From contig OZ219753.1 of the NCBI GenBank assembly GCA_964291315.2, forward strand, positions 928,001-992,000: a stretch of 64,000 nt of DNA. Reading direction: 5' to 3'. The position numbers were made by a program, and so were the translations under genes. Below the pieces are notes generated by a model. The model saw nothing but the letters and a program-made list of their open reading frames with translations, did no database searches and was not told where the DNA came from. Shown piece by piece: positions 11,255-38,068 of this stretch (its first letter is position 1; the number at the start of each line of letters is the position of its first letter). Origin of the DNA: Candidatus Poribacteria bacterium (lineage in GTDB: Bacteria; Poribacteria; WGA-4E; WGA-3G).

Positions 11255-14200
11255 ATGAACGCGATAGAACGGCCCTGCCGAGATATTCTCAACAGGGCGC
11301 TCGACATCTATCGCGATGCCATGCGCCCCTTCATCGTCAACACTTTGAAACAGGTGCGCGGCAGAACCGTCGAAGAAATCCTTTACGACTCACTGCCCAA
11401 ACAAGAGCTCCAATTCCAAGAACGTCTGCAAGCGAACGGCGGCGACGTTGAGGCCGTCATCGACATCAGCAATTTCCCTGCCCTCGTTAGCAGAAATTGG
11501 CACGGGGAGGCCTTTAGCCGGCGATTCAACGGCGATATGACGGTGCAAAATCACTTATACGTCATCGCGCAAGCCCGTAACAAAGCCGCACACCCTGATG
11601 GCACCGATCTTGATGCCGAATACACCCGGGCCCGCTTGCACGACATCGCCGACGTACTCGGCAGGATTAACGCGCCTGAGCAGAAACAGCGGGTTGAGGA
11701 GCTGCGGCAGGAACTCACCGGCACCGAAGAAAAAGCACAGCCGACTTCAGCAACAGGCAGCCGCAACGCATCTGCTACAGCCGCACGCCCAAGGCCCGCT
11801 GCCAATAAGAGTGGTCTCAAGCCTTGGCGCGAGGTGATCCCCCCAAATCTTGAACTCACACAAGGCACTTTTGAAGACGCAGAGCTGGCAGCGAATCTAC
11901 AAGAGGTCTACGATGGACGCGCCAGCGCAACCAGCTACGGCAACGCTGTCAGCTTCTTTAAGCAGACGCATCTCACAGCAGGTCTCCGATCGCTGCTGAC
12001 CAGCGCCCTCCAACGTCTTGCAGGCAAGGGCAGCGCACCCGTGATCCAAACCAAAACAGGATTCGGCGGCGGCAAAACGCACGGCCTCATCGCTCTTTAT
12101 CATCTCGCCAAGAGCATCGACGAACTCACACAACTCCCCGCTGATCCCGATACGGATAACTTGCGCGCCGACATTCACGCCATCGCGCAGGAATCCGGAT
12201 GGGACGGGGCGCGAAATCTGCAGCCCAAAGTCGCCGTCCTAGAAGGCACTTACCTGGCACCCACAGATCCCGAGGTGACAAAAGAGAACGGAGACCCGCT
12301 CAATACGCTCTGGGGAGTCATGGCGTACCAACTCGGCGGGCAGCCCGCATACAACCTCATCGGCGAGGCAGCGAGACGACAAGACTCCGCACCCCTCGGC
12401 GCACAATTGGACAAACTCTTTGAACACGTAGGACCTTGCGTCATCCTTATAGATGAACTGGTCGCTTACATGCTCAACTTCAACGACGACGATCTGCTCG
12501 GCGTGCATTACACCTTTATCCAAGCGCTCACCGAATCCGCACGTCGCGCAAAAAACGTCGTGGTTGTCGTAACGTTGCCAACGAGTCAACAGGAAGCAGG
12601 CGGCATCGAAGGCGAAACCATCCTCGCAACGCTTGAGGTCCGTATGGAACGCATCGAAGCCATCTGGAAACCGCTGGAGACCAGCGAATCATTTGAAATC
12701 GTACGCCGCAGACTCTTCGGCAACCAGATCGACGAAACTGAACGCGACCGCACCTGTGAGGCGTTCGTCGCCATGTACAATAGAAACCGGAAGGTATTCC
12801 CGCAAGGGGTGCACGAGCAACGTTACCTCGACCGCATGAAGGCGTGCTATCCGATCCACCCCGAGATATTTGAACGTCTCCACGCCGACTGGTCAACCAT
12901 TCACAGATTCCAACGCACGCGCGGCGTGCTGCGCCTCATGGCGAGCTGTATCAGCCGACTCTATCGAAGTAACGACAACTCGCCGCTCATCATGCCGGGG
13001 AACCTACCGCTCGACGATCCGAGCGTCACCGGCGAATTTGAGAAAATCCTGCCGGGGCGTTGGGAGGCGGTCTTCGCGGAAGCGGACAGCAATGACGGGC
13101 GCGCAGACCTCATCGACCAGCAACGAAAAGATTTCGCACAATGCGGGGGCGCGGCGCGCCGAATCGCACGAGCTGTCTTCCTCGGCAGCTGCCCCGGCGG
13201 CGCTATCCGCGGCATCGATACACCCCGCATCCTCCTCGGCACTGCACAACCGGGACACAGATCTAGCGTCTATACCGAAGCACTCACCGAAATGCGCGGC
13301 AGCCTCCACTATTTCTACAACGATGAGAATAGATACTACTTTCACACCGAAGAAAATCTCAACAAGGTCGCCATCGACCGCGCAGAGCAGATCAGCGAGG
13401 CGGAACTCCACGAACACATCGTCTCGCAAATCACGGAGGCTGTCAGAAGGCACACATCGAAACCGGTTATCTGCCCGGAGGACTTAGAGGCTGTCCCGGA
13501 CAGAGATGTGCCCCACCTTGTTATCCTGCCGCCCGATAAGCTACTGCGGAGCCGTTCCGCGGAAACCGACGAGGCAACGTCTGCAGCAGAGCGCATCCTC
13601 AAGCAGCACACCACGGGCAAACGCGTCTATCAGAATACGCCCCTCTTTCTTGCATCAAAAACAGACGATATGCGGGATCTAAAGAGCTACACGCGCGAAT
13701 ACCTCGCTTGGCACTCCATTACACAAGGTGACCAGCGCATCCGAGGTCTCAAAGATGAGCGTCTAAGGCAGGCGCAAGCGAGCCTCAGGAAAGCAGAGGA
13801 AGCTGTCCGTAGAACCATCCCAAAGGCGTGGCGATTCGCCATTGCACCGGCACAACTCGACCCGCAACATCCGGAACTTACGTTGACACCCGAACAGACG
13901 AAGGCCGCAGAGACCGGCGACATCGTGGAAGGCGCCTTGGAGGCACTCAGAACACGGGGGGCCCTCATCGGCTACGAAACCCCGGAAGAGCTCAACGCAC
14001 GCTTAACCGAATACATATGGAAGGATCAAAACCACATCAGCGTTCAGAAGGTGTGGGAAATGATGGCACAATACGTCCATATGCCCAGATTGGAAACCAG
14101 AGAAGTGCTCACAACTGCGGTTAAAGAGGGCGTGGAAAACGGAACCTTCGGATACGCAGAACGCTACGATGCCGATCAAGAAGACTACCACGGGCTGCAC

Positions 14201-24349: not shown

Positions 24350-25561
24350 ATGTCAGAACTGAAAAACCACAATGTCACCATGCTCGGCACGGGACTCATC
24401 GGAATGTTTTATACGATGACGCTCCACAGCCAACGTGGGGCGGATCGCGTTCACAGCGTCTACTCTCGACGCAAAGAACGCGCAGATGCGTTTGCTGAAG
24501 AGTGGAATATCCCGCATGCAACCGCTGATCTAACGGAAGCCGTCAATCACCCTGAGACCGATACTGTCATCATCGGGTTACCGAACAACTTGCATCTGAG
24601 GGCCGTGGAGTTGGCTGCTGCTGCCGGCAAATCCATTCTTTGCACAAAGCCTCTGGGACGTACTGCTGCCGAGGCGAGGGTGATGTTAGATATCGTTGAA
24701 AGCGCGGGCATATTCGGTGGTTATCTTGAGGATCTCGTCTATCCTCCAAAAACGCTCAAAGCGCTGGCATCCGTTCAAAACGGTGCGCTTGGTAAAGTTC
24801 TATGGGTGCGTTCCCGCGAAACACACCCCGGGCCCCACAGCGATTGGTTCTGGGATTTGGAGCAGGCTGGCGGTGGTGCTATCGTCGACATGGGATGCCA
24901 CTGCATTGAGATCATCCGAAACTTTGTAGGGAAGGATAACAGGCCTCTTGAGGTAATGTGCTGGGCGGACACGCTTGTGCATCCTATTGATGCGGAAGAT
25001 CACGGCATCGCGCTCATCCGGTTCGAGAGCGGTGCAATGGGACAGTTCGAAGTCGGTTGGGCGTTCCGCGGTGGTATGGATCTACGTGACGAAATCTCTG
25101 GGAGTGAGGGCACTATCTGGCTCAACCACTGGCTCCGGACAGGCTACGAAATGTTCACAGCGGTTGGGCAAGGCGGATATGTGGCAGAGAAAGCAGAGAG
25201 TGATACGGGCTGGCTTTTCCCTGTCGGTGATGAAGTGGCAGAGCTCGGTTACCGGGATATGTTCCTTGATATGTTCAATGCGATGGACGAAAAACGTGAG
25301 CCCTTGGAAACCTTCTACGACGGATACGTCGTCAACGCCATCATCGATGCGTGCTATAAATCGGCCGACTCAAAACAGTGGGAGCCGGTCGACATTCAAG
25401 ACTGGCGGGGCTCCCTCGAAGCTACTGACATCGTAACCGTTCAAGGCGATGCTGATGAACGTTATGCCCACCTCAAAGATGAGCGCATGCCCGACGGCAG
25501 CCTCAAACGTATCTTCAGAGAGCGGGAGACCGGTGAGATTATTGAACGGATAGAAAGTTAA
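24350..25561 (+). CDS. Gfo/Idh/MocA family oxidoreductase
   Basis: [23 protein letters not shown]. Confidence 0.9.
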
Positions 25562-25568
25562 AAAGAGA

Positions 25569-25612
25569 AGGCGATTGCAGCTCAGTCTTCACACTGGACT
25601 CGGCAATCGCCT
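25569..25612. terminator. Hairpin between convergent genes, likely intrinsic terminator
   Basis: AGGCGATTGC/GCAATCGCCT stem; T-rich tail on the minus strand. Confidence 0.65.
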
Positions 25613-25638
25613 GTATTCATTGTTCATTGGATTTTCCT

Positions 25639-26265
25639 TTACCCAATCAGCCCGAGGGTTTGACATGCCTGTATCAACTTCCGCTCCACCTGTTTTAGGA
25701 GTTGGTTGACTCTCGGCTTGCTGAGTGCTAGAGCTTCAGCGATGTTGCGCTGTTTCATATTTGCACGAATGCATGTGAACACTTGCTGCTCGCGGCTGGT
25801 CAGGCAATCTTCCAGCTGGGGCAGCGCTCGTTCAAAATCGGTATTCCACATCTCCCAGATGAGTGCATCCACAAAGTTATCTTGTACCTGCGCGCTTGTT
25901 TCTACGCCCTCTTGAAGAAAATCGTTTGCACTGAAAGCGGGTGTAAAACGTTGAAGGTGTTGCTGCTCTGTTTTCTTGGCTCTTGTCAAAGCCCCACAGA
26001 TTCTTGGAAGCATATATGTTCGGAAACAGGCCCCTTGTATGTTGTCGGGTTTAAATCCGGGTCCTTTTTTCCAAAGCGTTATCCGTGCAATTTGCAGTAG
26101 GTCGTCCTGAAAAGATGGGAGTGCTGGTGCCGCGTTTGCAGTACACTTTGCACACCGCTTCAAGTCAGCTTCAAAGCGAATCAACGTTGCGTTATCTGCC
26201 TCGAAAACCCCTTTGTGCGCATACGGGGGACACTTCGGGCCCTTGAATTGACATCTCAGCGTCAT
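25639..26265 (-). CDS. Sigma-70 family alternative sigma factor
   Basis: Region 2-like DDLLQIARITLW...GACFRTY; region 4 LTSREQQVF...IAEALALSKPRVNQL; AGGAGG RBS. Confidence 0.8.
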   Translation of the reverse strand: MTLRCQFKGPKCPPYAHKGVFEADNATLIRFEADLKRCAKCTANAAPALPSFQDDLLQIARITLWKKGPGFKPDNIQGACFRTYMLPRICGALTRAKKTEQQHLQRFTPAFSANDFLQEGVETSAQVQDNFVDALIWEMWNTDFERALPQLEDCLTSREQQVFTCIRANMKQRNIAEALALSKPRVNQLLKQVERKLIQACQTLGLIG

Positions 26266-26504
26266 AATCTACCTCCTGGCACATGTTTGTTCTAAAACGA
26301 TGCGTGTCCCGAAGATAGCAACCCACGAAACACAGCATCACACACTTGGTTCGTACATATTTCCTCACAACTAAAAACGTAATTTGTATTCGCGTTTGCA
26401 AAAGTTGCAAACAACCAATAGACTCTCCTATAAATATAGCACAGTGCCCATTTTCGAATCAAGTAAAAGGGTGGTAAAGTTTTGTTACAAGGATCCAGTC
26501 TCTT

Positions 26505-28925
26505 TTAATCTGCAGCATGTGTTGCCAAAAATTCAGGGTTAGAAGTTATATCGGCGGGATACCGAATTTTCCAAACCTTTATCTTGGCTGTTTCTACATT
26601 TTCTGTGGGGAACACGGAAACAAAAGCGTCGCTTGCCAATCCTCGAAAAAACAGTCGAACGGAGAGGTTGTTCCAACCGACCGGTGGTATATAGTAGGCC
26701 CTATGAAGCCGTGCTTGCTCATCAAAGTAGAGGACGGCGCCTCCCATCGAGACAGATTCAAGGTTTGCTTGCGTATCAAGCAGGTCAGGATTCAGCCTTG
26801 CTCGGTTTTGAGAGTCGACACGTCTGTTACCAACGAAGGCAGCATGAGGCATTTCAACCTGTGTTCCGTCTTTCAGGCGCGCGGTCACTGAAAGCGTTTT
26901 GTCAAGGTCGGTACTAAAGTTAAGGTCAATCGCTACAAAAGGCGTAGCATTTGTGGAGGCAAACAGACGGTATTTAGTACCTGCTGCATAATGTGCGTGT
27001 AAGTCTATCAGCTCAAACCTCCGATCAAAGTTAGCGTCGCTGCCAATAAACGAATACCCTCGGGCGTGTCGAACCAAGTCATTTTCGGTTAGCATCAAAT
27101 GCGTTGCACCATGCGTCTTAAGAAATGCCAACGCTTCTTTCTCGGATTGGGCGGAGAAAACGTGCCGGCAATAGAGATGTATCCAGTGTTGAATGAAGTG
27201 ATCTTGATCGATGACCGTCTTAACGCCGCCAAGGACGTTGAGCATGCTGCCGTATCCCCAATTCGCAGCGACCACGGTGGTGTCGTTAAGTTCTGCTTTT
27301 ATCCAACTTAATCCTTTCTCCAAGGTTGTGCCGCCGGGTACTACCTGTCTCAGGCCATTCGCTGCGTAGACACTTCTTTTGGCGTATCCGCCGCCCGGCA
27401 ACCAAAACAGAAGGGCAGCTAACATCGCAACGGCGGTGCCGCTTTTTAATACAGTCTGCGGAATCCTTAAGTTAATCTTTTTTCTCACAGTTTCTGATAT
27501 AACGCTCACAAATTCTATGGCAAAGAAAACAGTAGGCACCCCAATAAAGAAATCGTACCGTTTTGCGTCACGAGAGAGTGCTACCCAAAGTATGAACCAC
27601 GCTGCTAAAGCCACATAACAGAGCTCGTTTTTCACAGGGGCTTTTCGCCAGAGGGCAACTCCCAACGCAGCGCCTGCAACTAAAATCAGTGAGCAGAAAA
27701 AGAGAAGATCACACATCTCTGTACCGAAGAAGCTACGGAGCGGCTCCTGAAAGAACGTCGTCAAAACAAATAAACCGATTGGCAGAACTAAAACCGTGCC
27801 TTTTTGTTCCCACAGCCGCATGCTGGCGACCATCAAGCCGATGCTCCCGAGTAACCAGACCCCTCCGAACCGAAACATCCAATAATCGTAATGCGGTGTC
27901 CTTAACTCTGTAACCGTCTGCATTAACCGACTATCGCTAAACGGAACAGTGCTTAGATCAAACGTGTGTTGCTGACTGAGAAAATAGAGGCCTCCAATCA
28001 TAAGACTAAACAAGGTTAGCAAAAAGGCTATCAATCGCGCGTGAGAACGGAACCGGTTCAAAAACGCTTTTCTGGTTTCAAGCAGGGCCCTGATAGAATA
28101 CAACGCCAAAACCACTAAGGGAGGCATTAACATTAATGCTGTCAGATGCGTGGAAAATCCTTGAGTGCTTCGATAGGCGGGGGAGAAAAGAAATAGCCCT
28201 GGCACAAACATCAAAACCCATAACAGATACTCTCCTATAGGATTAGTTTCTTCTGAAGCGATAAACCGCCACACTTCTGCGCAAAGGATCACTAAGACGA
28301 AAACACCGAAACCTTCCCAAGCTAAACCACCTAGGAAAACAAAAAAGCCTGAAAGCGCTGCGAGGATAAAACGCGGCCTCCGGCGTTGGGTTTGTTCCTT
28401 TGCTAAATACGTAGTGACAGCAAGTACGCCCAACAGCCAACAAAAACTGTCTCGATCACTGAAACCGGCAGCACTGCGCTCCACCGCACTCGGCAAGGTT
28501 GCCAACAGCACTCCTACACTCATCGCAAAGGTATATCCATAAGCTCGGTTGAGAAAAAGACAGAGGGCTCCTAATCCAATTACGAAGCAAACCACGGGAG
28601 CAAAGAGCATGAAATCGTACAACGATAGCGTGGGGTAGAAAAGTGTCGTCAACTTGTGGGTATATGCAACCACATAAGGGTAGAGGTTCAACGTTTGTCC
28701 TAAATCTCTACCTATCGGTACCCATCGAGACATATCACGTTCGGGTAATTGTCCATGTTCAGATACAAGTTGTGCCTGCGAAAAATAGAGGTAGGCATCT
28801 GTCTCCGTGAACTGTCCAAATGGAATGTTATCGACCCCTTGGATGCGGATCCAGAAGGCAATAAATAGGATAACACACAAAATCCCCCATTTCCCAATCT
28901 CCGAAGCGAGCTGAATAGTTTTCAT
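26505..28925 (-). CDS. STT3/AglB/PglB-family oligosaccharyltransferase-like membrane protein
   Basis: TETDAY, DMSRWVPIGR, RSAAGFSDRD, AWEGF, TVTE, many TM helices, NWGYG at the WWDYG position, KTVIDQD. Confidence 0.85.
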   Translation of the reverse strand: MKTIQLASEIGKWGILCVILFIAFWIRIQGVDNIPFGQFTETDAYLYFSQAQLVSEHGQLPERDMSRWVPIGRDLGQTLNLYPYVVAYTHKLTTLFYPTLSLYDFMLFAPVVCFVIGLGALCLFLNRAYGYTFAMSVGVLLATLPSAVERSAAGFSDRDSFCWLLGVLAVTTYLAKEQTQRRRPRFILAALSGFFVFLGGLAWEGFGVFVLVILCAEVWRFIASEETNPIGEYLLWVLMFVPGLFLFSPAYRSTQGFSTHLTALMLMPPLVVLALYSIRALLETRKAFLNRFRSHARLIAFLLTLFSLMIGGLYFLSQQHTFDLSTVPFSDSRLMQTVTELRTPHYDYWMFRFGGVWLLGSIGLMVASMRLWEQKGTVLVLPIGLFVLTTFFQEPLRSFFGTEMCDLLFFCSLILVAGAALGVALWRKAPVKNELCYVALAAWFILWVALSRDAKRYDFFIGVPTVFFAIEFVSVISETVRKKINLRIPQTVLKSGTAVAMLAALLFWLPGGGYAKRSVYAANGLRQVVPGGTTLEKGLSWIKAELNDTTVVAANWGYGSMLNVLGGVKTVIDQDHFIQHWIHLYCRHVFSAQSEKEALAFLKTHGATHLMLTENDLVRHARGYSFIGSDANFDRRFELIDLHAHYAAGTKYRLFASTNATPFVAIDLNFSTDLDKTLSVTARLKDGTQVEMPHAAFVGNRRVDSQNRARLNPDLLDTQANLESVSMGGAVLYFDEQARLHRAYYIPPVGWNNLSVRLFFRGLASDAFVSVFPTENVETAKIKVWKIRYPADITSNPEFLATHAAD

Positions 28926-29083
28926 GTTTAAGCCTCCGCATTCTATAGGAACGTTTAGAATGAATTAGATGAGAAAAAATGCCTCTCTGTTTTTAGGTTT
29001 CACTATAAACAGTGTCTAAAGTTGGCACCCCAGCAAACCGCTGCGATGCCAACCCGTACAGCAACGTTTGAAATCCCCGCGTA

Positions 29084-29923
29084 TCACTCATCGGCGTCTT
29101 CTAGGACCTCATCGCTAAATGCAGCTTCTATCACCGCGGGGTCTTTTGTCGGGTCCTGGAGCAAGAGCTGTTTGAATTCCATCGCCGCTTGTGGGTCCAG
29201 TCTCTTGAAGATGCGCATAGCCTCTACCTCGCCAAACTCCTCTAAGAGCGGCTGAAGTATCGCCTTAAAACGCGGACTCGGATCAACAGGTTTCACAATA
29301 GGCCCAAACGTCGGGTTATACGGCCGCCCCGAAGCCTTTATCTCCTCCAGAGACTCAATAGTTCTCTGAGTGTCCGGATGGGGCCAGAGTTCATTTGTTG
29401 CCCTTACGTGTGCGAGAGCTTCGTCAATAGTTTCAGGTATCTCCGCCATCATTTTGTATGTACCGACAGCAATCGCCTCGGCGAGTTCCTCAATCCCTGG
29501 TACATCGCTGAACTGTTTAATGAGCTGCGCGCGCTTATATTCCGCATAGAGAGCTGGATCGGTCGTCTCATACCATCTGGAAGGCGGATACGGCTCGCCT
29601 TCCTCGTCCGCTGCCGCTTCCTCGTCCTCTTTGAAGATCAGTGCTGTCCAGGGATCAACGTCTCCGTGGGTGTGTGCAGCACCATCATCGTGCAACCAAG
29701 AAGCCTCGGGTGACTTCTTAGAATCCGCTGCACCCGTCTGGGAGCCCTCATCGCCTGTGTGTGATGCCTCAGCCGGCAGCGTGTTGTGATCATGCCGCTC
29801 CACTGTCTGCGGTGCCGCGATACGGCCGCTAAACTGGCGCTTGTCAACCTGCAGGTAAACCGCTAAACCAACGCAAAATACCAAAACCGCAACCGAGGCT
29901 ATTCGTAAAACTCGCAGTATCAT
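29084..29923 (-). CDS. Array partner protein A1 (membrane-anchored, acidic)
   Basis: MILRVLRIASVAVLVFCVGLAVYLQVD anchor; paralog of A2-A4. Confidence 0.85.
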   Translation of the reverse strand: MILRVLRIASVAVLVFCVGLAVYLQVDKRQFSGRIAAPQTVERHDHNTLPAEASHTGDEGSQTGAADSKKSPEASWLHDDGAAHTHGDVDPWTALIFKEDEEAAADEEGEPYPPSRWYETTDPALYAEYKRAQLIKQFSDVPGIEELAEAIAVGTYKMMAEIPETIDEALAHVRATNELWPHPDTQRTIESLEEIKASGRPYNPTFGPIVKPVDPSPRFKAILQPLLEEFGEVEAMRIFKRLDPQAAMEFKQLLLQDPTKDPAVIEAAFSDEVLEDADE

Positions 29924-30124
29924 CTTTTCCCCTTCTTCTTTCCGTCCGTTGTTAGAGTTGGCACCCCAATAAACCACTGAGATGCCAACGATCTATTCTT
30001 TCATTACGCGCGGAATGATGGGCTCATGTAAAGGTGTGTGCTATTCCTCTAAACACATCAATAAGCACTCGGAGGATTTTCCGCTTGCACGTATCTTGAC
30101 ATGAGCCAATTCCGCTACCAGAGG

Positions 30125-30430
30125 CTACCACGGAGCGCAGCAGCCACTGCAGGACGTCACACGGTCAGTAGTCTCTCTGTCCCGATTAACATAGTACGTA
30201 TCGTGGTCGCTGTGAAAAAACACTCTGTGGTACCATGGCTCATCGGTATCCGAGTAGGGTCTCGATATGTCAATACATGTCTGGCCGCCGTCCTGGGTAC
30301 ACTTATAATACTCCGTACCGCTCCAGACTCTTCTTGGACCTGCCTCGGTTTTCCCCGGGAGGGTCATGATAGCTACCGGTGCTGCTATCATGACGAGGAG
30401 GATAAAGAGCGCGAAACTTTGCCTTAACAT
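30125..30430 (-). CDS. Secreted Cys/His mini-protein P1
   Basis: AAGGAG RBS, signal peptide ending TEA, ends SCSGCCAPW; paralog of P2. Confidence 0.85.
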   Translation of the reverse strand: MLRQSFALFILLVMIAAPVAIMTLPGKTEAGPRRVWSGTEYYKCTQDGGQTCIDISRPYSDTDEPWYHRVFFHSDHDTYYVNRDRETTDRVTSCSGCCAPW

Positions 30431-30784
30431 TTTCTATCTCCTTTTTTAGGTTGTGTGAAGAGGAAGGTTATGTGAGATCCGCTGATACATCCGTTGTATC
30501 AATCTGTCCTCAGAAAACTTCCTTCCACTTGCCTATATTATTCGCCAACGTCATTTCTGGCGATCTTCACTATATACTACCACAACTATATATTAATTAT
30601 CAACAGAAAAAGTTAACAGTAAGATCATTTTTTGCAGTTTTTCTCAAAAATTCGCTCAATCCCGCAATTTAACTCGGAACTTACCCAAAAACGCAACTGC
30701 ACAACCTTGTTTTCAATGGAGGCATGCACACCGAAAAGAGTTGGTTGCACATCACACGATCTTTCGCATGCGTGCGTTGTTAAA
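30431..30784 (-). promoter_or_regulatory. Duplicated promoter/leader block upstream of P1 (copies 33089-33429 and, diverged, 34548-34760)
   Basis: Near-identical ~340-350 bp non-coding block with an AT-rich promoter-like segment and a long leader hairpin. Confidence 0.75.
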
Positions 30785-30853
30785 ATTGGCACCCCAGCAA
30801 ACCACTGAGATGCCAACGATCTATTACTTGCATATCAACTGAACCCCCGCGTA

Positions 30854-31651
30854 TCACTCATCATCACTAAATAGCGCCTCTGTCTCCGCCGGGTCTCTTG
30901 TCGGGTCCTGGTGCAAGATCCGCTTGAATTCCATCGCCCCTTGTGGATCTAGCATCTTGTAGATGCGTATGGCCTCTACAAAGCCAAATTCCTCTACAAG
31001 CGGTCTAACGATCGGCTCAAAACGCGCACCCTCATCAACCTGCTCCACAATAGGACCAAACGACGGTTCCCCCGAACCCTCTACCCAATCCACATACACA
31101 GTAGTTCTCCGAGTGTCCGAATTCGGTAAAATCTCGCTTGATGCCCTTACGTGTACCGTAATTTCAGGATTCTCCGTCATTATGTTGTATGTCTGGGCAG
31201 CAATTTTCTCAGCGAGCTCCTCAATCCCCGGGACATGGCTGAACTGTTCAATCAATAAGGAGCGATAATATTCAGCAAATAGGGCAGGATCACTCATATC
31301 ACTCCATTCTGGAGACGAATACGGCTCGCCTTCCTCATCTGCTGCCTCCTCGTCCTCTGTGAAGATTAGTGAAGTCGACGGATCAACGTCTCCGTGGGTA
31401 TGCACAGAGCTATCATCGTGCAACCAGGATGCCTCGGGCGACTGCTTAGAATCCGCTGCACCCATCTGGGAGCCCTCATCGCCTGTGTGCGATGCCTCAG
31501 CTGGCGGTGTGTCGTGATCATGTTGCTCTGCTGGCGGTGGTGCTGGGAGCCTGCTGCTAAACTGGTGCTTGTCAACCTGCAGGTAGACGGCTAAACCAAC
31601 GCAAAACACCAAAACGGCAACCGAGGCAATTCGCAAAACTCGCAGTATCAT
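30854..31651 (-). CDS. Array partner protein A2
   Basis: Paralog of A1/A3 with a divergent central segment. Confidence 0.85.
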   Translation of the reverse strand: MILRVLRIASVAVLVFCVGLAVYLQVDKHQFSSRLPAPPPAEQHDHDTPPAEASHTGDEGSQMGAADSKQSPEASWLHDDSSVHTHGDVDPSTSLIFTEDEEAADEEGEPYSSPEWSDMSDPALFAEYYRSLLIEQFSHVPGIEELAEKIAAQTYNIMTENPEITVHVRASSEILPNSDTRRTTVYVDWVEGSGEPSFGPIVEQVDEGARFEPIVRPLVEEFGFVEAIRIYKMLDPQGAMEFKRILHQDPTRDPAETEALFSDDE

Positions 31652-31762
31652 CTTATCTTCTCCTTCTTTTTTTCGCATGCGTCCGTTGTTAAAGTTGGCA
31701 CCCCAGCAAACCACTGAGATGCCAACGATCTATTACTTGCATATCAACTGAACCCTCGCGTA

Positions 31763-32584
31763 TCACTCATCATCACTAAATAGCGCCTCTGTCTCCGCCG
31801 GGTCTCTTGTTGGGTCCTGGTGCAAGATCCGCTTGAATTCCATCGCTCCTTCTGGATCCAGTCTTTTGAAGATGCGTATAGCCTCTACAAAGCCAAATTC
31901 CCCTATGAGCGGCTGAAGGATCGGCTTAAAGCGAGCCCCCTCATCAACCGGCTTGACAATAGGCCCATACGTGGGTTTATACGGCCGCCCCGAAGCCTTT
32001 ATCTCCTCCAGATATTCAATAGTTCTCTGAGTGTCCACATCCGGAAAGAGTGCGTTTGATGCCCTTACGTGTGCGAGAGCTTCGTCAATAGTTTGAGGTA
32101 TCTCTGCCATCATTTTGTATGTGCCGACAGCAATCGCCTCGGCGAGTTCCTCAATCCCCGGAACATCGCTGAACTGTTTAATCAGGGAGACACGGTTATA
32201 TTCCGCATAGAGAGCTGGATCGGTCGTCTCATACCATCTGGGAGGCGGATACGGCTCGCCTTCCTCGTCCGCTGCCGCTTCCTCGTCCTCTTTGAAGATC
32301 AGTGCTGTCCAGGGATCAACGTCTCCGTGGGTGTGTGGAGCGCCATCATCGTGCAACCAGGATGCCTCGGGCGGTTTCTTTGGATCAGTTACACCTGTCT
32401 GGGAGTCCTCCTCGCCTGTGTGTGATGCCTCGGCTGGCGGTGTGTCGTGATCATGTTGGTCTGCTGGCGGTGGTGCTGGGAGCCTGCTGCTAAACTGGTG
32501 CTTGTCAACCTGCAGGTAGACCGCTAAACCAACGCAAAATGCCAAAACGGCAACCGAGGCAATTCGCAAAACTCGCAGTATCAT
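31763..32584 (-). CDS. Array partner protein A3
   Basis: Paralog of A1/A2; AAGGAGG RBS. Confidence 0.85.
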   Translation of the reverse strand: MILRVLRIASVAVLAFCVGLAVYLQVDKHQFSSRLPAPPPADQHDHDTPPAEASHTGEEDSQTGVTDPKKPPEASWLHDDGAPHTHGDVDPWTALIFKEDEEAAADEEGEPYPPPRWYETTDPALYAEYNRVSLIKQFSDVPGIEELAEAIAVGTYKMMAEIPQTIDEALAHVRASNALFPDVDTQRTIEYLEEIKASGRPYKPTYGPIVKPVDEGARFKPILQPLIGEFGFVEAIRIFKRLDPEGAMEFKRILHQDPTRDPAETEALFSDDE

Positions 32585-32785
32585 CTTTTCCCCTCCTTCT
32601 TTCCGTGCGTTGTTAAAGTTGGCACCCCAATAAACCGCTGAGATGCCAACCACCTATTCCTCACATTACATACGGAATGGGCTCATGTAAAGTATGTGTT
32701 ATTTCTCTAAACACATCAATAAGCACTCGGAGAACATTTACTACTTGCACATGTTCTTGACACGAGCCACTCTCGCTCCGAGAGA

Positions 32786-33088
32786 CTACCACGGAGCGCA
32801 GCAGCCGCTGCAAGACGTCACGATGTCAGTAGTACGGTTGTCGCGATAAACATAGTTCGTCTCGTGAGGTCTGTGAGACTCTCTGTGGTTCGAGGGCTCA
32901 TAACTCTCCGAGTAGTATCTCCATTTATCAACACAGGTCTTGCCATCGTCCCTGACACACTTATAGTACTCCTTACCGCTCCAGACCGTTATTGGACCCG
33001 CCTCGGTTTTCCCCGGGAGAGTCATGATAACTACCGGTGCTGCTATCATGACGAGGAGGGTCAAGAGTGCCAAACTTCGCGTTAACAT
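32786..33088 (-). CDS. Secreted Cys/His mini-protein P2
   Basis: Paralog of P1 with the same Cys scaffold. Confidence 0.85.
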   Translation of the reverse strand: MLTRSLALLTLLVMIAAPVVIMTLPGKTEAGPITVWSGKEYYKCVRDDGKTCVDKWRYYSESYEPSNHRESHRPHETNYVYRDNRTTDIVTSCSGCCAPW

Positions 33089-33491
33089 TTTTTTGCTCCT
33101 TTTATAGTGTGTGAGGAGGAAGGTTATGTGAGATCCGCTGATACATCCGCTGTATCAATCCGCCCTCAGAAAACTTCCTTCCACTCGTCTATATTATTCG
33201 CCACCGTCATTTCTGGCGATCTTCACTATATATATTACCTCTCGGCAGAAAAAGTTAAGGGTAAGATCGCATTTTTTTGCAGTTTTTCTCAAAAATTCGC
33301 TCAATTCCGCAATTTAACTCGGAACTTACCCGAAAACGCAACTGCACAACCTTGTTTTCAATGGAGGCATGCACACCGAAAAGAGTTGGTTGCACATCAC
33401 ACGATCTTTGGCATGCGTCCGTTGTTAAAGTTGGCACCCCAATAAACCACTGAGATGCCAACCTGTAGACAAACCTTTGAAACCGCGCGTA

Positions 33492-34547
33492 TCACTCGTC
33501 GGGGTCTTCTAGGACCTCATCGCTAAATATAGCCTCTATCTCTGCGGGGTCTTTTGTCGGGTCCTGGAGCAGGAGCTGTTTGAGTTCCATCGCCCCTTGC
33601 GGGTCCAGTCTTTTGAAGATGCGTATAGCCTCTGCCTCGCCAAATGCTTCTACAAGCGGTTGAAGAATCAGTGCAAAACGTTCATCTTCACCAATTTTTG
33701 AGGTATAGGGCTCCTTGGAATCTGTTATGCGCTCTAGATACTCAAGCGTTCTCTGGGTGTCCGCATCGGGAAAGAGCTCGTTTGTTGCCCTTATGTGTGC
33801 GACCGCTTCGTCGAGGGTCATGGGTATGTCTGCGCGCGTTTTATATGTGCCGACAGCAATCGCCTCGGCGAGTTGCTCAATCCCTGGCACATCATTGAAC
33901 TGTTTAATCAGGGAGACACGCTTATATTCGGCATAGAGGGCGGGATGACTCGTCTCATGCCACCCTGGCGGTGGATCCGGCCTTGCGGACTCGCCCTCTG
34001 CGCCGGCAATATCTACGGTTTCATCGCTAAATATAGCTTCTATCACTGCCGGGTCTTTTGTCGGGTCCTGGAGCAAGAGTCGTTTTATTTCCATCGCCGC
34101 TTGCGGGTCCAGTCTCTTGAAGATGCGCATAGCCTCTACTTCGCCAAACTCCTCTAAGAGCGGTTGAAGAATCAGTGCAAAACGTTCATCTTCACCAATT
34201 TTTGAGGTATAGGGCTCCTTGGAATCTGTTATGCGCTCTAGATACTCAAGCGTTCTCTGGGTGTCCGCATCGGGAAAGAGCTCGTTTGTTGCCCTTATGT
34301 GTGCGACCGCTTCGTCGAGGGTCATGGGTATGTCTGCGCGCGTTTTGTATGTGCCGACAGCAATCGCCTCGGCGAGTTCCTCAATCCCTGGCACATCATT
34401 GAACTGTTCGATCAGGGAGACACGCTTATATTCGGCATAGAGGGCGGGATGACTCGTCTCATGCCCCCCTGGCGGAAGAGACTGGACAGCTGCTGGTGCT
34501 GCTATCATGACGAGGAAGGTGAGGAGTGCTAAACTTTGCCTTAACAT
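33492..34547 (-). CDS. Chimeric array protein A4: P-type signal peptide + two tandem A-type domains
   Basis: MLRQSLALLTFLVMIAAP followed by an internal duplication with 504-bp period. Confidence 0.85.
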   Translation of the reverse strand: MLRQSLALLTFLVMIAAPAAVQSLPPGGHETSHPALYAEYKRVSLIEQFNDVPGIEELAEAIAVGTYKTRADIPMTLDEAVAHIRATNELFPDADTQRTLEYLERITDSKEPYTSKIGEDERFALILQPLLEEFGEVEAMRIFKRLDPQAAMEIKRLLLQDPTKDPAVIEAIFSDETVDIAGAEGESARPDPPPGWHETSHPALYAEYKRVSLIKQFNDVPGIEQLAEAIAVGTYKTRADIPMTLDEAVAHIRATNELFPDADTQRTLEYLERITDSKEPYTSKIGEDERFALILQPLVEAFGEAEAIRIFKRLDPQGAMELKQLLLQDPTKDPAEIEAIFSDEVLEDPDE

Positions 34548-34993
34548 TTTTTTGCTCCTTTTATAATAGTGTGTGAAGAGGAAGGTTATGTGAGATCCGC
34601 TATATCCGTTCGTTCTCAGGGAACTTCCTTTCACTTTCTTATATTATTCGCTAATGCCATTTCTACAGAAAAGTTAGTAGTAGGGTTGCCATTTTCAAAA
34701 ATTCGCTCAATTCCGAAATGTAGTTCGGAATTTATCCAAAACTTAACGTCACAACTGTCCGTTAAATTGAGTGACGTATTCTGTTTCTATAATAGAGACA
34801 TGCCCACTGAAAAAAGTTAGTCACAAATCACATTTTTTTGATATAATGCAAGGAAGTCCGTTCAATTCGGCTCAAACAGATTCTGGAAAATATGGAGAAG
34901 AACGGTTTTATCCGTTGGCAGTGACAAGATCACAACGACGTGTGGATGGATTAAGACACCTGTCCTGCGTTAACAACTCGGAGGGGATAACAC

Positions 34994-35845
34994 ATGGACG
35001 CAAGCTGGTTAGACTATTGTGCAACTGCAGAGCAGCTCACAACATTTAACGACACCGGGTATCTCATTGTTGAGGATGCTATTAGTGCTGAGATGACAGA
35101 TGGCTTAGAGGCAGTTGCAGACCGAATTGATGCCGAAGAACGCGCCAAAACAGGGATAGAACCACACACATTACTATCCAAGTTTCGCGCTGTCTCTGAA
35201 GACGACTTGCTATTGGAGCTGCTCGACACTAAGAAGGTGTTTCCGCTACTTTGGGACATCCTGGGTTGGAACATCCAACTCTATATCTCACATCTCATCA
35301 TGTACCCGCCGGAGCCTCCGGATACGCCTCGCGTTAGCAGAGCGGCGCATTGGCATCAAGACGGCGGTAGACCTGTTCCGGAAATGGAGCGTCCACATCC
35401 GCGTCTTTCATTGAAGGTGAGCTATTGGCTAAGCGATGTGGTCGACCGCGACAACGGTGCAATGCGTCTTATTCCCGGGAGCCATACGCTCGATACACGC
35501 CCGCCCAACAGTGAAAACGATCCTGATGGAGATCCAGAAGGAGCAATGGATCTGCTCGTCAAACGCGGCACTGCTGTCCTCTTCGATAGACGGATGTGGC
35601 ATTCACGCGGTTGGAATTTCTCTGATGTAACGCGAAAAGTACTCTTCATGGGATATAGTTACCGTTGGCTGCGGGGTCTAGATTACAATCTCATGCCGTC
35701 GGCGCTTCTTGAAAAATGTAGTCCGATTCGACGGCAATTGTTAGGCGATGGTGTGGATATTAAAGGCTGGTGGCAACCTACGGACGCTGACGTGCCCTTA
35801 AAGACATGGATCGCAGAACATCGCGGCACAGAGCATTTACGCTAG
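34994..35845 (+). CDS. Phytanoyl-CoA dioxygenase (PhyH) family protein
   Basis: GYLIVEDAI, WHQD, IPGSH, WH; GGAGG RBS. Confidence 0.9.
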   Translation: MDASWLDYCATAEQLTTFNDTGYLIVEDAISAEMTDGLEAVADRIDAEERAKTGIEPHTLLSKFRAVSEDDLLLELLDTKKVFPLLWDILGWNIQLYISHLIMYPPEPPDTPRVSRAAHWHQDGGRPVPEMERPHPRLSLKVSYWLSDVVDRDNGAMRLIPGSHTLDTRPPNSENDPDGDPEGAMDLLVKRGTAVLFDRRMWHSRGWNFSDVTRKVLFMGYSYRWLRGLDYNLMPSALLEKCSPIRRQLLGDGVDIKGWWQPTDADVPLKTWIAEHRGTEHLR

Positions 35846-36746: not shown

Positions 36747-38024
36747 TTATTCTGATTTGAGTTTAGTAACGAGATATTCTTGTCCGCGGTTACCCTTTAC
36801 GCGATTGCAGTGTCCGCAAAGCAGCTGGAGATTGGAGGTATGATCAGTGCCTCCGACGGATTTGGCAATGATATGGTCAATTTCAAGGTGTTGTTCTTGG
36901 AAATGCTCTTTGCATCCGCTGCAATATCCTTTCTGCTTGCCATATAGCGCTGTTCTGTTTTCCGGTCTGTTGTAGCGTGGGAGCTTACCTAGATCTGTGC
37001 GTTTGGGAATATCTGTTCGGTGAATAATCTTCTGGAACAGGCCTTGCTCGTTTTTTATGCGTCTGACGACTAGCTCTGCGGCTTTCGGGCTGATGTCAAT
37101 ACCTATCCAGTTGCGCTGCAGTCTATCTGCTGCTACGCAAGTTGTTGCGCAGCCACAGAAGGGGTCAAAGACAACGTCGCCTGTGTTGCTGGATGCCTTG
37201 ATGATGCGTTCTAATAACTTAAGCGGTTTCTGTGTCGGATAGCCTGTCTTTTCTGCGGATCTTGGCCCAACAATAGACATGTTCCATATATCATCTATTG
37301 CGGGGCCTGGGGGTTGTTCGGGTTGTTGGACATCGTAAATTTTTCTTCCTTCTTGTTGCCACATAGGTAATTTAGCGATCACTTTGGGGTTGGATCTGTC
37401 ATAGATCGAAACGATTTTTTTTCCACCGCTTGATTTTGTGTTGTATCCACGTTGTTGTATCTGCTTCTGATTTTCTGTTAAGGCTTTATGATAAAGCTTG
37501 TTAAAGTTGTAATCTTTTGTAGCAGAATACATCAAGATAGTATCGTGATTCTGTTGGAAGTATCGAGCTTTATTCGGAAACTTCTTATAGTGCCACACAA
37601 TCTCGTTCCGAAAGTTCTGCCTTCCGAATACAGCGTCCATCATAATCTTGAGATAATGCGACATAGTTGGATCGCAGTGTAGATAGATAGAGCCTGTATG
37701 AGTGAGGACCCGTTTCATTTCCAGCAACCGCACTGCCATGTAGATGAGATATGCCTTATCGCTGTCTACGATTGCAGCGTGGATAACACGGTTGAGAGCG
37801 GGATGCTTTGTCTCAATGAGGTCGAGCCAGGTGATGTCTACATCGTTGAGCGTCCAGGTATCCTTGAACTCGGCGCCTGCGGCTTGTGAGCCGATGGGGG
37901 CAGCGTAGTTTGCTTTGCTATTGAAAGGTGGATCGAGATAGATGAGATCAACGGATTGAGTGTTCATGCCGCGCATGATCTGTAAGTTGTCGCCGGTGAA
38001 GATGGTTTTTGGTTTGATGTTCAT
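36747..38024 (-). CDS. Beta-class amino-DNA methyltransferase fused to a C-terminal HNH endonuclease
   Basis: DLIYLDPPF, YPTQKP, DPFCGCATT; CSGC...IDHII...NLQLLCGHCN. Confidence 0.9.
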   Translation of the reverse strand: MNIKPKTIFTGDNLQIMRGMNTQSVDLIYLDPPFNSKANYAAPIGSQAAGAEFKDTWTLNDVDITWLDLIETKHPALNRVIHAAIVDSDKAYLIYMAVRLLEMKRVLTHTGSIYLHCDPTMSHYLKIMMDAVFGRQNFRNEIVWHYKKFPNKARYFQQNHDTILMYSATKDYNFNKLYHKALTENQKQIQQRGYNTKSSGGKKIVSIYDRSNPKVIAKLPMWQQEGRKIYDVQQPEQPPGPAIDDIWNMSIVGPRSAEKTGYPTQKPLKLLERIIKASSNTGDVVFDPFCGCATTCVAADRLQRNWIGIDISPKAAELVVRRIKNEQGLFQKIIHRTDIPKRTDLGKLPRYNRPENRTALYGKQKGYCSGCKEHFQEQHLEIDHIIAKSVGGTDHTSNLQLLCGHCNRVKGNRGQEYLVTKLKSE

Positions 38025-38068
38025 AGTGTCCCTTTTTTTATTCATTGGGCTTTGGAGGCATATCGCTG

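Follow-up and report, generated by a model that had tools for sequence, protein, structure and literature searches.

A 64,000-nucleotide (nt) stretch of the genome of a Candidatus Poribacteria bacterium (assembly GCA_964291315.2, contig OZ219753.1, forward-strand positions 928,001 to 992,000; hereafter the window) carries an array in which genes for small exported proteins (P) and for anchored proteins (A) are separated by copies of a 33-nt hairpin and are followed by genes for an 806-amino acid (aa) enzyme with an STT3-type oligosaccharyltransferase (OST) fold and for a sigma factor. Comparison with related genomes indicates that this P/A/OST/sigma module is real and recurrent, and that its parts are separable, because P-like/A-like/sigma modules occur without an OST and OST genes with exported partners occur without the sigma factor. 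Our preferred explanation, held tentatively and put somewhat short of an even chance, is that the array is an amplified, Poribacteria-specific, autoregulated envelope cassette that occupies a hypervariable island between conserved housekeeping flanks. The organism is an uncultured sponge symbiont, and the surface biology of such symbionts is thought to mediate the interaction with their host.

The eight genes share the minus strand and are transcribed in the order A4, P2, A3, A2, P1, A1, OST and sigma factor, followed by a terminator, as the initial annotation of the window had proposed. The open reading frames (ORFs) of the operon encode P, A, OST and sigma proteins only, and the flanking genes encode a Gfo/Idh-type oxidoreductase and a phyH-type dioxygenase. 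The last hairpin (29021) is separated from the OST start codon (28925) by 95 nt, in agreement with the spacing of about 95 bp given earlier, and the terminator that had been placed after the sigma gene is present as a strong stem and U-run of the intrinsic type at about 25556 to 25612, a structure missed by a simple terminator scan. A contig assembled from reads, possibly from the source sample, covers 25600-29165 with 0 differences; the repeat array is fragmented into short contigs in that assembly. In window coordinates and in order of transcription, the features are as follows.

34548-34860, minus strand: promoter/leader block 3, a shortened copy that lacks an upstream hairpin.
33492-34547, minus strand: A4, 351 aa, which joins a P-type signal peptide to a tandem pair of A modules and lacks both anchor and linker (A6 profile, E 4.9e-74).
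33430-33462, minus strand: hairpin H6 in the A4/block 2 gap (-23.3 kcal/mol).
33089-33429, minus strand: promoter/leader block 2, with TTAACT from 33258.
32786-33088, minus strand: P2, 100 aa, 67% identical to P1.
32618-32650, minus strand: hairpin H5 in the P2/A3 gap (-19.4 kcal/mol).
31763-32584, minus strand: A3, 273 aa, 82% identical to A1.
31694-31726, minus strand: hairpin H4 in the A3/A2 gap (-23.2 kcal/mol sense, -13.2 kcal/mol antisense).
30854-31651, minus strand: A2, 265 aa, the most divergent anchored copy, 65-72% identical to A1 and A3.
30785-30817, minus strand: hairpin H3 in the A2/block 1 gap (-21.1 kcal/mol).
30431-30784, minus strand: promoter/leader block 1, TTAACT-N16-AATATA from 30616, then a structured 5′ leader of about 100 nt.
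30125-30430, minus strand: P1, a signal peptide and a mature protein of about 70 aa with 5 Cys and a C-terminal CSGCCAPW.
29957-29989, minus strand: hairpin H2 in the P1/A1 gap (-22.5 kcal/mol).
29084-29923, minus strand: A1, 279 aa, anchored at its N-terminus, with a disordered linker and then two helical domains (AlphaFold2; A6 profile, E 5.9e-44).
29021-29053, minus strand: hairpin H1 in the A1/OST gap (-26.1 kcal/mol).
26505-28925, minus strand: OST, 806 aa, a GT-C glycosyltransferase of predicted STT3/AglB/PglB fold (profiles, AlphaFold2, Foldseek).
26433-26462, minus strand: sigma-70-like promoter match in the OST-sigma gap, TTGATT-18-TATATT with TG, a pattern match from a consensus scan only.
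25639-26265, minus strand: sigma-70/ECF-type (extracytoplasmic function) sigma factor, 208 aa, with an N-terminal Cys4 extension of C5, C12, C38 and C41 (TIGR02937).
About 25556-25612, minus strand: intrinsic-terminator-like structure 3′ of the sigma gene, which in the RNA fold is a long stem and then UUCUCUUUUU.

Repeat analysis of the window gives a duplication period of 2658-2661 nt, which indicates that the P/A array originated by tandem duplication and bears out the expansion by repeats that had been suggested for it. Copies of the hairpin lie at every duplication junction. The last-numbered member, A4, is by alignment a chimera of a P-type promoter, leader and signal peptide with two tandem A modules; its N-terminus matches residues 1-25 of P1 at 68% identity (tblastn), and its two A modules lie 504 nt apart. 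This chimeric make-up implies that A4 would be a secreted, rather than an anchored, A protein.

The same sense-strand hairpin occurs at every cistron boundary in the P/A part of the array. In the window the pattern GTTGGCA-N19-TGCCAAC is found 6 times when one mismatch is tolerated, where 0.01 matches would be expected, and 6 matches were reached in 0 of 100 shuffles; the initial annotation likewise lists six copies. In the whole 4.4-Mb genome TTGGCA-N19-TGCCAA occurs seven times, as the six copies of the locus and one unrelated site. Folded as sense RNA, each 33-nt copy gives a stem of 13-14 bp with an energy of -19.4 to -26.1 kcal/mol (z -3.4 to -6.1), equalled in 0 of 200 shuffles, and the weak fold of the opposite strand of one copy (-13.2 kcal/mol) is explained by several pairs being G.U. 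None of the six was called by the terminator scan, and no U-run follows the stem (tails: CUUUAACAACG); the Rfam 15 covariance models gave 0 matches at E≤1 over 25000-35500, an interval that includes both the hairpins and the 5′ leader. The locus of the closest OST ortholog, in genome G058, has two hairpins that share the outer arms and in which one-sided changes preserve pairing; over both species the outer arms GTTGGCA/TGCCAAC are invariant in 8/8 copies. Hairpins of -18 kcal/mol or stronger were found in 34 of 83 cassette gaps and in 17 of 150 control same-strand gaps. The sigma-54 promoter consensus is TGGCAC-N5-TTGC, and a reading of the hairpin as such a promoter was rejected by eye: on the sense strand the GC element is displaced by 4 nt from its required register, and the opposite strand lacks it.

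The duplicated promoter/leader block that had been reported is present in three copies, ahead of P1, P2 and A4, as seen from repeat families and alignment. The blocks upstream of P1 and P2 are identical at 315 of 338 aligned bases (93%), whereas the synonymous sites of P1 and P2 differ at 25%, which points to constraint or gene conversion acting on the regulatory region. A motif of the form TTAACTTT-N11-15-ATAT[AT] lies less than 6 kb upstream, on the strand of the sigma gene, in 11 of 24 sigma loci, and 8 of these 11 are among the 21 loci that played no part in defining it. The motif has 9 matches in the 4.4-Mb genome, two of them the P1 and P2 blocks, and a single match in 627 kb of OST loci without a sigma gene. 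TTAACT-N16-ATATA is accordingly proposed as a candidate cognate promoter of the Cys4 sigma family, and its being common to operons that end in a member of that family supports the co-regulation that the initial annotation had put forward.

Between promoter and start codon of P1, P2 and A4 lies the 5′ leader of about 100 nt (30431-30560, 33089-33215 and 34548-34665, minus strand), with a counterpart at 11462-11591 of locus L044. In G058 the leader adopts the long stem seen in the window, with an inner hairpin in which one G-C pair is exchanged for A-U, and its lack of an Rfam match makes the leader a candidate cis-regulatory RNA. Elsewhere in the window's own genome a third P-type promoter, with the beginning of the leader, lies at G000:C4:3097129 (minus strand; L009 4500-12001), ahead of a cassette of anchored, secreted and A-type lipoprotein genes that has no OST, though it resembles the cassettes that precede OST genes elsewhere.

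The 806-aa protein is, on fold and profile evidence, an enzyme of the STT3/AglB/PglB fold, in line with its earlier description as STT3-like. Its AlphaFold2 model (mean predicted local distance difference test score (pLDDT) 82, predicted TM score (pTM) 0.83) matches AglB (7e9s, E 2.4e-15) and PglB (5ogl, E 1.9e-14) in Foldseek, and also yeast and human STT3, with TM 0.54-0.70 over matches of E 1e-13 to 2.4e-15; the top 19 matches are all AglB, PglB or STT3 (E 2.4e-15 to 1e-9, TM up to 0.61/0.70), and the match to known OSTs spans the multi-pass GT-C membrane domain as well as the C-terminal globular domain. At the level of sequence the protein is remote from curated families: Pfam, including PF02516, gave no match at E≤1, and TIGR04154 matched with E 7.7e-14 and 51 bits against a cutoff of 450. 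Homologs are named by their sources as Candidatus Poribacteria proteins, many of them with PF02516 and one annotated Stt3. At genus level the family was detected in 57 of 61 genomes, with as many as 16 matches in one genome; the figures are 72 of 81 for the taxonomic family of the window and 84 of 121 for the phylum. The ratio of nonsynonymous to synonymous substitution rates (dN/dS) of the OST is 0.14.

A profile of 31 family members aligns to human STT3A in the first acidic loop, at the D-x-D and around WWDYG. Residues D43, D157, D159 and E340 are invariant in 31/31 members; D43 aligns with the Asp of STT3A 'EFDPY' and D157-R-D159 with 'YDNE'. Both the acidic residue of the first DXD (external loop EL1) and the second DXD (EL2), in the motif definitions given in PMC8342417, are thus found in the OST. 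The segment T-V-T-E340 (E in 31/31) fits the TIXE/SVSE pattern of EL5, although the profile alignment to solved chains stops short of this loop. The WWDYG position differs: it reads NWGYG in the OST and x-W-x-[Y/H]-G in the family, with N, S, E, G or D at the first position, only W and G invariant across the 31 members and Asp in 3 of them. A DK/MI motif was not recognised by eye in the conserved D-Q-D-H-F-I-Q-H-W-I segment. According to the same motif descriptions, WWDYG together with DK/MI builds the Ser/Thr pocket that reads the sequon (PMC8342417). With WWDYG degenerate and the carboxylates kept, the OST clade appears to retain the catalytic centre and not the +2 reader; given also the unrecognised DK/MI, the missed curated cutoffs and the many paralogs per genome, the acceptor of this WWD-less OST is probably not N-X-S/T.

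The last gene is, by its match to TIGR02937 (E 3.6e-14, 52.7 bits against a cutoff of 42.9, residues 53-199 covering sigma2 and sigma4), a sigma-70/ECF-type factor, which upholds the identity first assigned to it; the Pfam models for regions 2 and 4 fall below their cutoffs. Four N-terminal Cys (C-x6-C...C-x2-C) are conserved in 7/7 aligned family members, and the family was detected in 49 of 61 genomes of the genus. Paralogs end operons of unrelated exported cargo, for example PD40 beta-propellers. No match to an anti-sigma family was found among the operon proteins in Pfam and NCBIfam, and A has no cytoplasmic domain; with no anti-sigma gene nearby, the Cys4 module may be a built-in sensor. 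In the window sigma factor and in paralogs at L005, L027, L039, L040, L044 and L045 this module has a zinc-ribbon-like look.

The P and A proteins have no matches in Pfam, NCBIfam or PADLOC. P1 and P2 carry a Sec-type signal peptide and A1-A3 an N-terminal membrane anchor, as was expected of exported P and anchored A proteins. In the AlphaFold2 model of A1 a helix spans residues 2-32, residues 31-107 have pLDDT <50 and residues 110-200 pLDDT >90; Foldseek returned nothing for this model at E≤0.001, its best matches (E>1) being tetratricopeptide repeat (TPR)-like domains, and the ESM Atlas held no usable match for the A domain or P1. A 96-position profile of the first A domain nevertheless found 332 representative clusters at E≤0.001 among 1.84 billion, and 9 of 10 sampled matches were without a Pfam domain. 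With A1 as query the A family was detected in 19 of 24 genomes of the genus, and 0 of the 16 genomes that represented three further families of its order gave a match. The P family is far smaller, with three proteins in 5.8 billion and an uncalled copy in G058; its invariant residues are E40, Y42, C44, C52, E64, H68, H76, T78, T87, D89, V91, C94, C97 and P100, so that four Cys are kept, with a CxxC at the C-terminus. The proteins had been described as diversified mini-proteins, and dN/dS is indeed raised for P1/P2 (0.63; 0.25-0.43 for A pairs), but it lies below 1 and positive selection on P is not shown. A co-folding prediction for P1-A1 gave a median score of 0.22 against a mark of 0.32, which counts neither for nor against P-A binding.

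Recurrence of the module is best seen in G058, the genome with the closest OST ortholog (80% identity), in which P (100 aa), hairpin, A (283 aa), hairpin, OST and sigma follow one another in a neighbourhood different from that of the window; the sigma factor of this cassette is a paralog, 49% identical to that of the window. Genomes G076 and G042 have a small secreted protein, an anchored protein and an OST (54% identical), with a member of the sigma family downstream. Within the window's own genome, a second locus combines an A-like gene, a small CxCC protein, a PMT_2 GT-C enzyme and a sigma paralog, and an OST paralog locus has an ECF sigma factor upstream. The loci of the 10 closest sigma orthologs are largely syntenic: Gfo/Idh-type and BNR flank genes occur in 9/10 (71-90% identity) and the phyH-type flank gene in 7/10 (85-88% identity), while between the flanks the sigma factor is 59-63% and A 30-35% identical, and sigma is preceded by two genes, one P-like (103 aa, 25% identical, with the Cys pattern kept) and one A-like (276 aa). 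In one of these loci an unrelated 13-14-bp hairpin lies between the P-like and A-like genes. Comparison of the flank genes at 24350-25561 and 34994-35845 with the relatives (L024-L033) shows an island of 9 kb here and of 2-3 kb there, and the well-conserved flanks (85-90% identical between species) around a far more diverged interior (sigma 59-63%, cargo about 30%) suggest that the island is hypervariable.

Neighbourhoods of OST homologs were surveyed at 46 loci, composed of 6 top-ranked matches and 40 further down the ranking, with matches that had too little upstream sequence skipped and the window's own genome excluded from the counts; 20 further loci were examined after the rules had been fixed, and sigma linkage was counted in the 46 only. 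In 20/46 OST loci, against 14/466 control anchors, an upstream gene encodes a small exported protein that has 2 or more Cys among its final 16 residues; the same holds in 6/20 of the fresh loci, for a total of 26/66. A sigma gene lies downstream in 3/46. In a second type of OST cassette, the genes directly upstream code for a small exported protein very rich in Cys, a protein with WD40 repeats and a permease of the MacB/FtsX type (L053, L061, L064, L068, L071, L074, L088, L089, L100-L103, L108); some of these loci add a secreted protein of about 340 aa with a terminal GWQYAF. Downstream of many OST paralogs stands a gene for a GT2 enzyme (PF00535) or for a CDP-alcohol phosphatidyltransferase (PF01066), as at L049, L054, L072, L077, L080 and L081 and at L052, L076, L079, L085 and L089, and these could encode donor-lipid enzymes. 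In many anchored partners, such as those of L048, L052, L057, L060, L080 and L086, Y-x3-D-x-K/R-x-F-x2-S/N-L-P closely follows the membrane helix despite differing outer domains; this holds at 12/46 loci but at 0/20 fresh ones.

From this anatomy, fold, conservation and association we infer how the cassette may be regulated, how its RNA may act, and what may be modified and bound. The linked sigma factor would drive the TTAACT-N16-ATATA promoters and hence its own synthesis, forming a positive loop, with the weak sigma-70-like site in the OST-sigma gap giving a basal level of sigma. The hairpins, which have no U-tract, would act as intercistronic 3′-end stabilisers or leaky attenuators, such that transcripts of P and A exceed those of OST and sigma. 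After Sec export, P and A would encounter the OST at the outer face of the inner membrane, where the enzyme, having kept its carboxylates and lost the +2 Ser/Thr pocket, may modify P, or the disordered linker of A, at a non-canonical acceptor, and the TPR-like domain of A might serve as an adaptor or chaperone. Tandem duplication and the P/A fusion in A4 would later have diversified the set.

Several observations weigh against this explanation. No N-X-S/T is present in P1 or in A1-A4, P2 has one site that is not conserved, and the alignments of P and A hold no invariant Asn; taken with the missing WWD Ser/Thr pocket of the OST, this weakens the suggestion of the initial annotation that the proteins may be glycosylated. 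The ORFs of the operon include no genes for the synthesis of a lipid-linked glycan. Linkage in other genomes, which had been suggested as a check, is divided: the P-hairpin-A-hairpin-OST-sigma order of G058 speaks for it, but among the 10 closest sigma-ortholog loci an OST is found in 0/10 and an A match in 5/10, and an A-domain gene lies directly upstream in 6/46 of the surveyed OST loci and 1/20 of the fresh ones (7/66 in total). Since nine syntenic loci are without an OST, the P-like/A-like/sigma module does not need one. A juxtamembrane motif, [YF]x3[DEN]x[KRQH]xFx2[SNGTE][LI], defined post hoc, was found at 12/46 loci but at 0/20 fresh loci, and was dropped as a rule for anchored partners in general. 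The promoter motif looks sigma-70-like and could therefore be read by a housekeeping sigma factor, and an outer 7 bp that is invariant across species would also fit a protein-binding DNA palindrome. The earlier interpretation as a whole is thus partly supported, in its anatomy, enzyme, sigma factor and linkage, and is weakened by the lack of conserved sequons, the degenerate OST pocket and the absence of OST genes beside the closest sigma orthologs.

Other explanations have to be weighed. P and/or A may not be substrates, and could instead serve a multi-protein OST complex as accessory subunits or specificity adaptors, in a role akin to that of the non-catalytic subunits in eukaryotic OST; every OST paralog would then have an anchored partner and a small CxxC protein dedicated to it. 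The many OST paralogs, most of them preceded by their own anchored and small Cys-rich exported genes, would suit such a complex, as would the invariant C-terminal CxxC of P, the TPR-like helical domain of A without a conserved Asn, and the lack of conserved sequons in both. We nonetheless consider it unlikely: the nine P-like/A-like/sigma modules stand without any OST, the placement of the hairpins implies that P is made in excess over the OST, and tandem amplification with the raised dN/dS of P suits cargo better than fixed subunits. The absence of an OST from the closest sigma-ortholog loci, despite their syntenic flanks, is also what would be expected if there were no functional coupling, with P and A forming a Cys4 sigma regulon of envelope or surface proteins and the OST a passenger recombined into the variable island. 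The unrelated exported cargo of sigma paralogs, such as the PD40 beta-propellers, and the divergence of the G058 sigma factor (49% identical, against 80% for the OST) agree with this idea, which we regard as improbable in view of the P-hairpin-A-hairpin-OST order retained in a different genomic context in G058, the hairpin family that bridges A1 and OST in both genomes, and the enrichment of Cys-tailed exported genes upstream of OST paralogs (26/66 versus 14/466).

Two further explanations seem to us very unlikely. P could be a secreted antimicrobial or signalling mini-protein that the OST decorates and A its anchored immunity protein or receptor, with extra A copies as orphan immunity genes, in a periplasmic, Sec-dependent counterpart of glycosylated bacteriocins. 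P is small, disulfide-capable, exported and present in variable tandem copies with the highest dN/dS in the locus, A copies outnumber P and A2 is without a P of its own, and a hairpin directly 3′ of a small gene is reminiscent of the precursor-attenuator-enzyme layout known from bacteriocin operons. Against this stand a dN/dS below 1, the predicted secretion rather than anchoring of A4, the lack of any transporter or processing protease among the ORFs of the locus, and the lack of similarity to bacteriocin, toxin, immunity or defence families in Pfam, NCBIfam and PADLOC. The chances are similarly slight that the 33-nt element acts as DNA, whether by binding a dimeric regulator at a palindromic operator or by providing the recombination site behind the duplications. 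Its invariant arms in two species and its place at every duplication junction would be explained; the G.U pairs, however, favour the sense strand (-23.2 versus -13.2 kcal/mol), the observed changes preserve RNA pairing, and strong but unrelated hairpins are found between P and A in other cassettes.

The preferred explanation, an autoregulated envelope cassette, can be extended to a speculation that we think doubtful: that Poribacteria possess a large family of 'dedicated' STT3-type enzymes, each with its own Cys-tailed mini-protein and anchored adaptor, which would place glycans or another lipid-linked group on a non-N-X-S/T acceptor, possibly the C-terminal CxxC, with some members wired to a Cys4 sigma factor that needs no anti-sigma. 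STT3-family enzymes are considered near-universal readers of Asn-X-Ser/Thr. A clade with the catalytic centre but no Ser/Thr pocket therefore points to a new acceptor rule for a textbook enzyme. Members of the clade number up to 16 in a single genome and travel with private sets of exported proteins. If the extended reading were true, it would mean that periplasmic proteins can mature in a new way and that the STT3 fold has gained a new acceptor chemistry. The locus also offers testable items in a candidate Cys4-sigma promoter, an intercistronic RNA hairpin conserved between species, and the two nameless protein families P and A. Adjoining the island, a 432-aa ORF (36747-38045, minus strand) resembles a DNA methyltransferase that ends in an HNH-like segment, judging by DPPF and HNH-type motifs picked out by eye.

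The initial annotation recognised no described system with this layout. No description of it was found in the literature, including papers on Poribacteria and oligosaccharyltransferase, STT3 or N-glycosylation (for N-glycosylation, in listings and by a term look-up in PMC7203096); the layout is, however, not unique to the window, which holds one instance of a pattern widespread in the genus. Its components can be compared with known systems. The enzyme resembles STT3, AglB and PglB in the fold of both domains and in its invariant first-loop Asp and D-x-D, and perhaps in an invariant TIXE-like V-T-E; it differs from them in its degenerate WWDYG, scores below the Pfam and TIGR04154 cutoffs and many paralogs per genome, and perhaps in DK/MI, which was not recognised by eye. 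In Campylobacter pgl-type loci an STT3-family enzyme modifies exported proteins at the periplasmic face, and both an enzyme of this family and, putatively, this site of action are shared by the array. Unlike pgl loci, the array has no glycan-assembly glycosyltransferases or flippase with the OST and instead co-encodes candidate partner proteins and a sigma factor, and the linked proteins carry no D/E-X-N-X-S/T.

CorE is an ECF-type sigma factor with a built-in Cys-rich sensor extension. Like CorE and other autoregulated ECF operons, the array encodes a small sigma2-sigma4 protein with a Cys-rich extension and no evident anti-sigma, situated inside the operon that it probably controls. The Cys4 module is, unlike that of CorE-type factors, N-terminal, the sigma gene comes last behind exported cargo, and the putative promoter TTAACT-N16-ATATA is unlike classical ECF promoters. 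Intercistronic stem-loops are known to set differential mRNA stability, and operons for bacteriocins or for ribosomally synthesised and post-translationally modified peptides use a precursor-attenuator-enzyme layout. As in these systems, a stable hairpin without a U-tract follows the gene of a small, presumably abundant product and precedes larger downstream genes. Unlike the repetitive extragenic palindromic (REP) elements that are spread genome-wide, the hairpin described here is specific to its locus, repeated six-fold and conserved in sequence between species.

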